A DNA stretch of 64,000 bases, from the NCBI GenBank assembly GCA_035478715.1, contig DATIJK010000041.1:2550-66549 (forward strand), in the 5' to 3' direction. Below are positions 29,236-55,776 of the stretch, in pieces. This DNA is from Candidatus Saccharimonadales bacterium. Its GTDB lineage: Bacteria; Patescibacteriota; Saccharimonadia; Saccharimonadales; UBA4665. The position numbers and the translations under genes were made by a program. Under the pieces are notes generated by a model that made no database searches, was not told the DNA's origin, and saw only the letters and a list, made by a program, of their open reading frames with translations. Numbering within the stretch: the first letter of the stretch is position 1; the number at the start of each line of letters is the position of its first letter.

Positions 29236-29423
29236 TAGACTCAGCCAAGATACACAAATATTTCTAGATTCCATCATCCCTGAACAGCGCGGGATCTAGC
29301 GATGCATATAAAGTATTTTGCTAGATTCCTGTCAGTTCGGGATTAATGGCCAATCTGAAAATGAAAGTCTTTCGTTTTAGCTCATACATTCCATATGTAT
29401 TGAATTGCGAAAGACTCTGTTAG

Positions 29424-29452
29424 TTGTAAAAACTTCGGTAATACGCTATATT
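29424..29452 (+). promoter_or_regulatory. Candidate promoter for tRNA-Val
   Basis: TTGTAA, 17-nt spacer, TATATT, ending about 20 nt before the tRNA 5' end. Confidence 0.45.
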
Positions 29453-29471
29453 TACTCTAATCAATTGACCC

Positions 29472-29548
29472 GGGCGCTTAGCTCAGTTGGCTAGAGCACC
29501 TCGTTTACACCGAGGGGGTCGGGGGTTCGAGCCCCTCAGCGCCCACCA
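29472..29548 (+). tRNA. tRNA-Val (anticodon TAC), CCA encoded
   Basis: Acceptor GGGCGCT/AGCGCCC, D-arm GCTC-AGTTGGCTA-GAGC, anticodon stem CCTCG/CGAGG with loop TTTACAC, T-arm GGGGG-TTCGAGC-CCCTC. Confidence 0.9.
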
Positions 29549-29556
29549 CTTAAAAT

Positions 29557-29578
29557 CCCCACTTCGTGTGGGGTTTTT
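29557..29578 (+). terminator. Intrinsic terminator after tRNA-Val
   Basis: CCCCAC-TTCGT-GTGGGG followed by TTTTT. Confidence 0.7.
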
Positions 29579-29590
29579 AAGTGGTTGTTG

Positions 29591-29710
29591 CCCGGGTTCG
29601 AACTCACGACCACCGGGGTCGGGGTGAGACCCGCCAGTGGCGGGTCGCAAGGCAATCTTCCGGAGCAAGCTTGCTTGCTGCCGTGAAGTTGCGAGCCTGC
29701 CGGAGGCAGG
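29591..29710. ncRNA. GC-rich multi-hairpin segment of unknown identity (candidate structured RNA or relic)
   Basis: About 67% GC by my count in an otherwise moderate-GC region. Perfect hairpins: GACCCGCC-AGT-GGCGGGTC (29628-29646), GCAAGC-TT-GCTTGC (29665-29678, nested in GGCA/TGCC and GCAA/TTGC helices) and CCTGCC-GGA-GGCAGG (29696-29710). Confidence 0.3.
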
Positions 29711-29732
29711 TCGAGCCCCTCAGCGCCCACCA
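29711..29732 (+). repeat. Exact 22-nt copy of the tRNA-Val 3' end (TCGAGCCCCTCAGCGCCCACCA)
   Basis: Identical to 29527-29548. No matching 5' acceptor strand or D/anticodon arms upstream, so it is a fragment and not a second tRNA. Confidence 0.9.
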
Positions 29733-29840
29733 TTCGACTCGCTTTGCTCGCTCATGGTAAACAACGAGTAAGAAAGGCGAGTTTTTGATTACTGCGTTAG
29801 TATTATGTGTGTCGAATGACCTTGAGCTTGTCGAAGGGCC
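29733..29840 (+). repeat. CCA-abutting element, copy A (about 108 nt)
   Basis: Starts right after CCA. Shares with copy B (55658-55776) the motifs TCGA(C/T)TCG, C(G/A)CTCATGGTAAAC, GACC(T/C)TGAGC and GTCGAAGGGCC. Its termini can pair (TTCGAC/GTCGAA; CTCATGGT/ACCTTGAG). Confidence 0.55.
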
Positions 29841-29915
29841 CTAAACAATCCCTACTTTGTGTGGGTTCTCACAATCAAAAGTAAATAACGATAATTCGGA
29901 TGGTACAATCACTGT

Positions 29916-30902
29916 ATGGATGAAACTAAAAAAATATCTCTTTTTTACACAACGTTAAATGTCCCGCTGCCGGATTTCATTTATGACGGTATCCGAGAAT
30001 TCTCCAAAAATGCGAACAGCTACCAGCCGCAGCCCTCGAAATTGGTGGACAGTTTAGCAGAGCGGCACAATGTTTCGAGGGATAGGATTTTCATAACAGC
30101 GGGAGCCGATGAAGCAATCCAATTATTAGCCATGGCATATGGCAAAAGCACATACTATTACACACCGACATATATCGGCTATCAGGATACCGAAAACATT
30201 GGCGCTACGGTACATCCGATAAATGCGATGCACGACGGTGAATATGCAATAAACACTGCAAGAATTGATGATGCGTCGTTGATTTATCTCGCCAACCCCA
30301 ACAACCCATTTGGGTTTACGCCGCGTGACAAAGTAGTGGACTTAGTTAAAAATAACCCGCAAGCAATCGTCGTCAGCGATGAAGTGTATGATAGTTTCGC
30401 GCCAGAATTATCTGTACTTGGTGAGCTTTCCGAATACCCCAACTTGGTCATTTTGCGGAGTTTTTCAAAAGGATTCGGCATGGCCGGAAACAGAATCGGT
30501 TACATGATTGCCAGCCCCCACATTGTTGAGCAAATCAGGTTAAAATCGCCTTTATCCAGCACGTCATATCTCTCAGTCGGGGCGGCTTTGGCGGCATTGG
30601 ATCACGAGCAATACTTTAAAGACGCCATCGACGAAATCAAGCGCACTCGTGAAACGTTCACGGCATTTCTAAAAAGCAAAGGCCGCGCGGTACTGCCAGG
30701 ACTCATCAATGCGGTGTTAATCAAGTTTCCAGATGAAAATTCGGCGGCAAAATTTTTGCAACATTTAAATGATAATAACTTTATCGTCCGCCAAGGCGGC
30801 AGCGGCCGCAATGCCGGATTGGACGATACATTTGTAAGAATTACAATCGGTACGCCGGATGAAATGAGGATGGCAACGGAAGTGATCGAACGCTACGAAT
30901 AA
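29916..30902 (+). CDS. Class I/II PLP-dependent aminotransferase (HisC/CobD-like, short form)
   Basis: NPNNPFG, DEVY and the PLP-lysine box SFSKGFGMAGNRIGY. Confidence 0.75.
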   Translation: MDETKKISLFYTTLNVPLPDFIYDGIREFSKNANSYQPQPSKLVDSLAERHNVSRDRIFITAGADEAIQLLAMAYGKSTYYYTPTYIGYQDTENIGATVHPINAMHDGEYAINTARIDDASLIYLANPNNPFGFTPRDKVVDLVKNNPQAIVVSDEVYDSFAPELSVLGELSEYPNLVILRSFSKGFGMAGNRIGYMIASPHIVEQIRLKSPLSSTSYLSVGAALAALDHEQYFKDAIDEIKRTRETFTAFLKSKGRAVLPGLINAVLIKFPDENSAAKFLQHLNDNNFIVRQGGSGRNAGLDDTFVRITIGTPDEMRMATEVIERYE

Positions 30903-55581: not shown

Positions 55582-55657
55582 GGGGACGTAGCTCAGTTGA
55601 TAGAGCGCCGCATTCGCATTGCGGAGGTCGTGGGTTTGACTCCCATCGTCTCCACCA
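55582..55657 (+). tRNA. tRNA-Ala (anticodon CGC), CCA encoded
   Basis: Acceptor GGGGACG/CGTCTCC with G3:U70, anticodon stem CCGCA/TGCGG with loop TTCGCAT, T-arm GTGGG-TTTGACT-CCCAT. Confidence 0.88.
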
Positions 55658-55776
55658 CTCGATTCGGCAGTTAATTCTGCCTCACTCATGGTAAACCAGT
55701 TGGATTTGTAAGATTAAAGTCTTTGCAGAATATATTTTGATCCGAAACGAAAGACCCTGAGCAAAGTCGAAGGGCC
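55658..55776 (+). repeat. CCA-abutting element, copy B (about 119 nt)
   Basis: Starts at the base after CCA. Carries the same four motif blocks as copy A in the same order (CTCGATTCG.., CACTCATGGTAAAC, GACCCTGAGC, GTCGAAGGGCC). The interior differs. Confidence 0.55.

Follow-up and report, generated by a model that had tools for sequence, protein, structure and literature searches.

A module set directly after the CCA of tRNA and tmRNA genes in Patescibacteria, and its association with a gene for a minimal GIY-YIG nuclease

The nearest precedent found for the element described here is provided by the theta ribozymes, minimal ribozymes of the hepatitis delta virus (HDV)-like type whose cleavage site adjoins tRNA 3' ends in gut Caudoviricetes phages, where only 4.5% of the associated tRNAs encode CCA, and which have been proposed to replace protein RNases in the removal of 3' trailers (Kienbeck et al. 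2024, PMC10879173). The present study concerns a 108-nucleotide (nt) element that directly follows the CCA of a duplicated tRNA-Val 3' end in a metagenome-assembled genome (MAG) of Candidatus Saccharimonadales, and its relatives elsewhere; the window is the whole 64-kb stretch of DNA analysed, and window positions refer to it. The family is widespread and apparently undescribed, and ranges over Patescibacteria (the Candidate Phyla Radiation, CPR) and some Verrucomicrobia and Lentisphaerae. Beyond the original prediction made from the window, the element proves to be one part, a non-coding module, of a cassette whose other part is a GIY-YIG nuclease gene. Like a theta ribozyme, the module would be a compact folded RNA, co-transcribed with a tRNA at whose 3' end its first nucleotide lies, and its helix starting at +1 is pseudoknotted with a second helix. 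It differs in having no match to HDV models, a U rather than a G at +1, no catalytic C and no HDV P4, so that most of the defining HDV-like features tested are absent from it; it also follows an encoded CCA, occurs in cellular genomes of CPR and Planctomycetes-Verrucomicrobia-Chlamydiae (PVC) bacteria rather than in phages, is coupled to a nuclease gene, and has a cleavage that is here putative. The favoured reading, to which a probability of roughly 55% is given, is that of a selfish cassette at the 3' ends of tRNA and transfer-messenger RNA (tmRNA) genes (t(m)RNA for either), in which the nuclease would provide mobility and the module would process the junction and release the tRNA. Its demonstrated foundations are a strict CCA junction, a discrete insert, linkage to the nuclease, a conserved core and covariation in two helices, P1 and P2.

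The window features on which the comparison rests are these.

29472-29548, + strand: intact tRNA-Val(tac) with CCA end, the 'empty' junction, where a terminator directly follows CCA (ARAGORN; Rfam tRNA, 66.5 bits)
29557-29583, + strand: intrinsic-terminator-like hairpin CCCCACTTCGTGTGGGG (stem 29557-29573) and T run, directly after the intact tRNA-Val and paralogous to 29841-29875 (terminator scan)
29581-29709, + strand: spacer 'B', GC-rich and strongly folding, which separates the intact tRNA-Val from the duplicated 3' end (folding)
29710-29732, + strand: duplicated tRNA-Val 3' end (3' part of the T-loop, acceptor 3' strand, CCA), the 'filled' junction (blastn, alignment)
29733-29840, + strand: element copy 1, 108 nt, TTCGAC...GTCGAAGGGCC, without a nuclease gene (sequence; covariance model, 78.1 bits, E 3e-18; pairing tables)
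29841-29875, + strand: degraded copy of the tRNA-Val terminator (alignment to 29549-29585)
55582-55657, + strand: tRNA-Ala(cgc) with CCA end, host of copy 2 (ARAGORN, Rfam)
55658-55776, + strand: element copy 2, 119 nt, without a nuclease gene, directly after tRNA-Ala(cgc) (sequence; covariance model, 87.6 bits, E 1e-20)

The duplicated 23-nt tRNA-Val end is identical to 29526-29548 at 22 of 23 positions (blastn), and excising 29733-29840 restores a paralogue of the intact tRNA-Val end, the alignment running across CCA into the terminator. With the 108 nt removed the alignment scores 36, against 14.2 +/- 3.4 for shuffled sequences, of which 1 in 1000 reaches that value. Since a paralogous empty and filled junction stand at one locus, the insert can be bounded as CCA/TTCGAC...GGGCC/ (slashes mark its junctions), and the degraded terminator at 29841-29875 places it between CCA and terminator. 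No target duplication is seen when the empty and filled sites are compared. The original prediction had proposed a discrete 108-nt insertion, an empty and a filled junction at this locus and a second copy after the CCA of an unrelated tRNA-Ala(cgc), and all three proposals are borne out. The exact blocks CTCATGGTAAAC and GTCGAAGGGCC occur within the window at these two copies only, and a covariance model (R1) built from 30 copies recovers the same two, at 78 and 88 bits, with no third. Both lack the nuclease gene, which tblastn did not find in the window, and they precede unrelated genes, for an aminotransferase and a sugar transferase. Assembly GCA_964537005.1 contains proteins identical to those of the window, in keeping with its origin from a Candidatus Saccharimonadales MAG. 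An empty orthologue of the tRNA-Ala site was not obtained, all homologues of the downstream sugar transferase being at 45% identity or less.

Two scans, of species-representative genomes and of metagenomes, were made with patterns drawn from two internal blocks (CTCATGGTAAAC...GACCYTGAGC and a close variant), containing neither CCA nor the 5' end of the element. The genomes yielded 13 loci and the metagenomes 21, and all those with a name belong to Patescibacteria (among them Saccharibacteria and Peribacteria). Wherever the contig includes the 5' end of a copy, TTCGAYTC begins at the base directly after CCA. The upstream partner is a tRNA with an identified end in about 24 copies, covering at least 12 isoacceptor types (ARAGORN, Rfam; Val gac/tac, Gly tcc/gcc, Pro tgg/cgg, Lys, Phe, Leu, Ala tgc/cgc, Thr, Met and Ile), a tmRNA in about nine, and a 3' fragment or an interrupted tRNA in the remaining few. 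The module always has the orientation of its host tRNA and, where a tRNA terminator is visible, lies upstream of it. Divergent copies that the patterns missed and the covariance model caught also adjoin CCA, as at locus L024, where 1038-1183 follows tRNA-Val(tac). The association with the CCA junction is therefore far beyond chance, and the expectation that copies would always abut t(m)RNA 3' ends holds for every copy with a readable 5' end at the 34 pattern-derived loci and for the divergent copies, none being seen at random non-tRNA positions. This position suggests that the base after CCA is itself the target, as had been proposed. Whether CCA is encoded does not discriminate, because 51 of 51 tRNA and tmRNA genes in the loci encode it, with or without the element. 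Two scans of IMG/VR for carriage by phages gave 0 matches.

This distribution also bears on the idea that the tRNA-Val locus holds only a local segmental duplication or what is left of an integrase-type island, the likeness at tRNA-Ala being due to chance. Duplication of the tRNA-Val 3' end and of its terminator, 185 bp apart, speaks for it, as do comparable t(m)RNA 3'-end duplications in the flanks at L039, L024, L019 and L014; direct t(m)RNA-end repeats of the kind that flank integrase islands are present at some loci and lacking in most copies. Against it, more than 40 copies in all lie on unrelated contigs from two superphyla, most of them directly after intact genes; no integrase is nearby, no tyrosine or serine integrase lies between the repeats, the inserts measure only 0.1-0.5 kb, and duplication accounts for the spacer, not for the 108-nt insert. 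This idea deserves hardly any credence, and local duplication as sole explanation, the outcome that the original prediction had named as able to overturn it, is refuted by the collection scans.

No described family was recognized. Rfam returned only tRNA, tmRNA and LOOT when applied to the window at the gathering threshold, to 29400-29950 at E<=10, to 10 loci at E<=1 and to 32 further loci at the gathering threshold, and no description of the element or its motif strings was found in the open-access literature, in line with the earlier remark that no described element targeting the base after CCA was known. Folding of either window copy as a single sequence is unremarkable (z -0.8 and -1.2), so that structural support comes from comparison between copies and not from thermodynamics. 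Across copies the module is about 85-145 nt long, with these parts in order.

Segment a: UUCGAYUCG, nt 1-9
P2: hairpin of variable length
Segment b: GCUCAUGGU
Joiner: UAAACC, or CAAGCC in the PVC type
Interior: variable, 15-65 nt
Segment a': complement of a
Linker: UG, called invariant (AG in the tRNA-Ala copy; GA in the decayed L058)
Segment b': ACCYUGAGC
P4: optional hairpin
3' end: GWCGAA-GGGCC

In the window copies, on the + strand, P1 (a with a') and P3 (b with b') are assigned as follows.

29733-29741: copy 1, 5' strand of P1
29741-29747: copy 1, mini P2 hairpin GCTTTGC
29750-29758: copy 1, 5' strand of P3, GCTCATGGT
29759-29762: copy 1, AAAC
29763-29807: copy 1, variable interior
29808-29816: copy 1, 3' (internal) strand of P1, TGTGTCGAA
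29817-29818: copy 1, linker TG
29819-29827: copy 1, 3' strand of P3, ACCTTGAGC
29830-29835: copy 1, terminal GTCGAA
29836-29840: copy 1, GGGCC
55658-55666: copy 2, 5' strand of P1, CTCGATTCG
55666-55681: copy 2, P2 hairpin GGCAG/CTGCC
55684-55692: copy 2, 5' strand of P3
55743-55751: copy 2, 3' (internal) strand of P1, CGAAACGAA
55752-55753: copy 2, linker AG
55754-55762: copy 2, 3' strand of P3, ACCCTGAGC
55766-55771: copy 2, terminal GTCGAA
55772-55776: copy 2, GGGCC

P1 joins nt 1-9 to the segment immediately 5' of UG-ACCYUGAG; of its 333 cells 276 are paired, whereas shuffling gives 250.8 +/- 4.1 and 0 of 2000 shuffles reach 276. It is replaced wholesale by other complementary pairs in L056 (UUCCUCACAU/AUGUGAGGAA), L035 (UUCGAUGC/GCAUCGAA) and L022 (UUCGUCAC/GUGACGAA), and copy 2 carries a compensatory UUCG/CGAA where the consensus is CUCG/CGAG. 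In 36 of 37 copies the +1 nucleotide is a U whose partner is A, and P2 shows two-sided changes at 5 of 5 counted pairs, with short forms in which P2 has only 2 bp and P4 is absent. The termini had been described as resembling inverted repeats, and the 5' end does pair with the terminal GTCGAA, but its best partner is the internal segment 5' of UG-ACCYUGAG. Covariation had been proposed as the test against conservation of terminal inverted repeats, and its outcome is divided: P1 and P2 covary, whereas the terminal GWCGAA behaves as a conserved sequence with covariation at position 5 only. The inverted repeat reaches 2 nt into the flank (CA/TTCGAC...GTCGAA/TG), and an 11-nt direct repeat is formed by the internal GTCGAATGACC and the terminal GTCGAAGGGCC.

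The helices a-a' and b-b' (CUCAUGGU/ACCYUGAG) are pseudoknotted and lie two nucleotides apart, a geometry that brings the phosphodiester between tRNA and element next to conserved unpaired nucleotides, namely UAAACC, UG and a pyrimidine-pyrimidine mismatch. This U.C mismatch of the core becomes U-A in one divergent copy. The UG linker is complementary to C75-A76 of the tRNA. In L058 (734-890), a contig from Lentisphaerales, CUC and not CCA comes after the host tRNA-Arg(ccg), and the linker is GA, which matches that end and keeps the complementarity; this is a single case, in an element otherwise decayed. The variable interior did not emerge as an RNA guide, its complementarity to the host tRNA being no higher than in non-cognate controls.

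The arrangement invites comparison with HDV-like ribozymes, and a divergent member of that class would account for the equal position relative to the tRNA, for a P1 that starts at +1 and for the order P1-5', P3-5', P1-3', P3-3', which is the topology of the HDV P1/P2 pseudoknot (PMC10879173). The details of the core argue otherwise. There is no HDV-type Rfam match in 11 copies (29400-29950 searched at E<=10, ten further loci at E<=1); +1 is a U paired with A and not a G.U; between P1-3' and P3-3' there is only the UG linker (AG in the Ala copy), with no hairpin or P4 and no J4/2 cytosine; and neither a P1.1 nor an HDV P3 can be assigned. Theta ribozymes, moreover, mostly follow tRNAs that lack an encoded CCA, and none was found beside bacterial tRNAs (PMC10879173). 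That the module is a divergent HDV-like ribozyme is accordingly considered very improbable.

Many downstream flanks open with one reading frame, beginning M(x)W(F/Y)VYIAQARTGRYYVGIT..., whose product of 83-95 amino acids matches the Pfam domain GIY-YIG (PF01541, E 3e-16). The gene starts 10-60 nt past the element in 13 pattern-derived loci (tblastn; duplicate loci counted), is sometimes a pseudogene, accompanies roughly 40% of module copies and is the only recurrent neighbour gene of the module. Searches that started from the protein recovered the identical layout after tRNA-Ile in L050 and after a duplicated tRNA-Leu end in L039, and, outside CPR, after tRNA-Gly and after tmRNA (L055 and L056, both MAGs of Verrucomicrobia) and after tRNA-Pro in L059, with a decayed copy in the Lentisphaerales MAG of L058. 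More distant nuclease homologues (L043, L046, L060, L062, L064) have element remnants or none; at about 640-690 of L064 an inverted remnant of the element 3' end (reverse complement of ACCCTGAGCTTGTCGAAGGG) lies just upstream of the gene.

The nuclease consists of the GIY-YIG domain alone, and NCBIfam assigns it to no family. Conservation among 27 homologues extends to the catalytic Tyr, Tyr, Arg, His and Glu (R36, H40 and E74 invariant, Y16 and Y26 nearly so), and of the solved structures the UPF0213 proteins 1ZG2 (E 6e-13) and 1YWL come closest. By sequence it is thus a member of the Slx1-like/UPF0213 group of minimal GIY-YIG proteins, domain-only and with its catalytic residues conserved. 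The minimal prokaryotic Slx1-like clade includes UPF0213, and a fusion to a TrmH-like tRNA methyltransferase is the sole hint of RNA metabolism noted for it in the survey of that clade (Dunin-Horkawicz et al. 2006, PMC1564403); the literature searched gave no assigned function or genomic habit for the UPF0213/Slx1-like family. Like homing endonucleases of the I-TevI/Seg kind, the protein has the GIY-YIG catalytic domain and retains its Tyr, Tyr, Arg and Glu, but it lacks their C-terminal DNA-binding domain and its nearest structures are UPF0213/Slx1-like.

Several observations point to insertion and turnover. At the orthologous tRNA-Val(tac) the intact copy of the window and L028 are empty and L024 is filled. 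Behind tRNA-Gly(tcc), L017 and L008 have only the module, and L020 has module and gene. Tandem second copies occur in L014 (5473-5770) and L016 (353-576), truncated copies in L006, L021 and L037, and nuclease pseudogenes in L014 and L034; several scan matches lie at contig ends, as expected of repeats. Similar interiors are found at different hosts, the Val copy grouping with the tmRNA-following copies of L006, L009, L023, L026 and L029. A variant type of second copy, in which CTCATGGTCCTCG... replaces CTCATGGTAAAC, and an internally deleted mini-copy are also present (L014, L016, and L007 5006-5060). At some loci (window, L039, L024, L019 and L010) t(m)RNA 3' ends are directly repeated at the flanks, most copies having none, and the repeat in the window does not bound the 108-nt element; these flanking repeats hint that the cassette may spread by homology with the conserved T-arm and acceptor end. 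Fragments of t(m)RNA 3' ends terminating in CCA stand just after the GIY-YIG stop codon in L010, L019 and L031, and about 240 nt after tRNA-Val in L024. The fragment in L010, GGCATCTCCACCA, is tmRNA-like although the host there is tRNA-Pro, and fragments of this type suggest movement between hosts that may have carried along a piece of the former target.

Such turnover is hard to reconcile with a vertically inherited, non-mobile RNA that benefits its host, as a trailer or leader regulating the availability of the tRNA 3' end or, as a 5' untranslated region, the GIY-YIG gene. This possibility would agree with a core conserved across phyla and with the place of the module upstream of the nuclease gene, and an ATG lying within the conserved block GAATGACCCTGAG shares the frame of that gene in L019, L023, L026, L035 and L062, in the last of which it is the called start. 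Elsewhere, however, the same ATG is out of frame, and this inconsistency among loci counts against it, as do the varying host tRNA type between related genomes, the presence or absence at orthologous tRNA-Val(tac), at least two copies per small region, the tandem and truncated copies and nuclease pseudogenes, and the unrelated aminotransferase and sugar transferase genes after the solo copies of the window. A host-beneficial RNA is thus judged improbable.

Returning to the selfish cassette, its orientation with the tRNA and its place between CCA and terminator at the Val locus imply that the module is transcribed as a tRNA 3' trailer. The module would act as an RNA and direct an endonucleolytic cut exactly at CCA/U1, either by self-cleavage or by presenting the junction to a host RNase, for example an RNase Z cutting after CCA; the RNase Z of Thermotoga maritima is said, in work by Minagawa et al. 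of 2004, to cut directly after an encoded CCA. Because a stable helix starting at +1 would stall 3'-to-5' exonucleolytic trimming, a precise endonucleolytic cut would be needed, and it would allow an essential tRNA or tmRNA to mature despite the stable 3' structure, rendering the insertion harmless. Among the hosts, tmRNA and tRNA-Met, -Ile and -Phe are presumably essential and single-copy. The nuclease would make the DNA breaks by which the cassette spreads among tRNA genes, and its gene could then decay and be lost, leaving solo modules like the two of the window, kept by selection on tRNA maturation.

This life cycle would parallel that of a group I intron with its homing endonuclease, in which a structured RNA likewise makes the insertion harmless and a nuclease gene spreads it, and gene-bearing, gene-less and decayed copies coexist. 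The module differs in standing at the very 3' end, where one cut is enough and no ligation is required, and in having its gene after the RNA rather than inside it; Rfam gave no Intron_gpI match to a group I core, and the 85-145 nt lie past the last tRNA nucleotide. Further parallels are the 5' HDV-like ribozyme of R2 retrotransposons and the lariat-capping ribozyme upstream of the I-DirI mRNA, which separate an element from a co-transcribed host RNA; both elements are without a reliable promoter of their own and carry the ribozyme at their 5' end. Those systems are eukaryotic, lie in rRNA genes and use known ribozyme folds, and the present cassette has no reverse transcriptase.

A number of points weigh against this reading. 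The putative cleavage, if of the kind carried out by small self-cleaving ribozymes, would end in a 2',3'-cyclic phosphate and so block aminoacylation. No known ribozyme has a matching fold, Rfam giving nothing on 12 copies (11 at E<=10 or E<=1, the tRNA-Ala copy at the gathering threshold). As the UG linker can pair with C75-A76, the scissile site would fall inside a continuous predicted helix, a modelled geometry unlike the splayed one that small ribozymes require. The 5' strand also pairs with the terminal GWCGAA, in 97% of cells, and the reading explains no role for this pairing, while the invariance of the P3 core is due in part to its presence in the search patterns. On the protein side, the nuclease, whose homing activity is putative, belongs to the Slx1-like clade and has no DNA-binding domain, and related nuclease genes occur without a module in L043, L046 and L060. 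In L023, L026, L029, L019, L010 and L031 a -10-like box (TATAAT/TATACT) lies 6-9 nt before the start codon, as for a leaderless mRNA, so that the gene may have a promoter of its own, independent of that of the tRNA. Finally, there are 20 G.U against 29 A.C pairs and no strand asymmetry, so the helices could act in DNA. The original prediction had offered a miniature inverted-repeat transposable element (MITE) or a terminal-stem RNA; a conserved fold was found, and the pair counts do not choose between RNA and DNA.

If the helices do act in DNA, the module could be a MITE-like transposon, its nested inverted repeats and subterminal hairpins being recognized in single- or double-stranded DNA and its RNA structure being incidental. 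It would insert 3' of an acceptor end with CCA, without duplication and in one orientation, by the logic of IS200/IS605 elements and their palindrome-associated derivatives (PATE), and the GIY-YIG protein would be its nuclease. The likeness is considerable: insertion 3' of a fixed sequence, one orientation and no target duplication (an exact junction, CCA/TTCGAC, in all copies, and the empty and filled sites of the window), hairpins near the ends, pairing between flank and interior, an inverted repeat extending 2 nt into the flank, the 11-nt direct repeat, solo, tandem and gene-less copies, G.U pairs that are not in excess of A.C, and the t(m)RNA 3'-end fragments after the gene in L010 and L019, which resemble a right-hand junction. 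In contrast to IS200/IS605, the cassette has neither TnpA nor TnpB, and no HUH/Y1 or other transposase was found, the sole associated gene being the 83-95 amino acid GIY-YIG domain, a fold for which we know of no strand-transfer activity. The nuclease gene stands after the complete module and not between two ends, the short forms (P2 of 2 bp, no P4) are poor substrates for hairpin recognition, and the target is a tRNA or tmRNA end rather than a tetranucleotide occurring anywhere, whereas a short CCA/ACCA target predicts many non-tRNA insertions, none of which was seen. A DNA-level transposon is on balance thought unlikely.

The selfish cassette with a junction-processing module can also be put in a bolder form, which is held only tentatively. 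The module might represent a new class of small catalytic RNA built around CCA/+1, whose UG linker would bind C75-A76 and release any t(m)RNA end, or even exchange ends; together with the domain-only Slx1-like GIY-YIG nuclease it would constitute a kind of mobile element not recognised before and spread over CPR and PVC bacteria, a '3'-terminal intron' of tRNA genes.

Some features of the loci lie beside these questions. Spacer B of the window (29581-29709) is about 130 nt long and about 65% GC in a 46% GC genome, and together with the duplicated tRNA-Val end (29581-29732) it folds as a multi-hairpin structure closed by an acceptor-like stem; folding of 29549-29732 gives -99.4 kcal/mol (z = -6.5). 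It has no Rfam match at E<=10 and no homologue among the fetched loci. At the orthologous locus in L024, too, the stretch from tRNA-Val to a degraded copy of its 3' end contains GC-rich hairpins, but these do not align with spacer B. In L012 (122-315, - strand) the host tRNA-Gly(tcc) is apparently split in the anticodon loop into a 5' half GCGGGTGTAGTATAACGGCTATTATGTGGCCTTCCAA and a 3' half GGCCAAAACGCGGGTTCGACTCCCGCCACCCGCACCA by an insert of about 130 nt containing a complete tRNA-Gly(ccc). The LOOT RNA (RF03000) exceeds the gathering threshold in two contigs of Saccharibacteria type (L012 3881-4004 and L033 792-905).

Whichever reading holds, the family is an unannotated repeat that breaks Patescibacteria assemblies and could confuse the annotation of tRNA and tmRNA genes. 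If mobility is confirmed, the base that follows CCA in any tRNA or tmRNA would be a new insertion niche, and the enigmatic domain-only Slx1-like/UPF0213 GIY-YIG proteins would gain a first biological context. If cleavage at the junction is real, the module would be either a new ribozyme or a new RNase-recruiting fold, and the first cellular counterpart of the phage theta ribozymes; it would also mean that an RNA supplied by a parasite can mature the 3' ends of tRNAs in bacteria with very small genomes. A compact RNA that sets an exact CCA 3' end would serve tRNA production.

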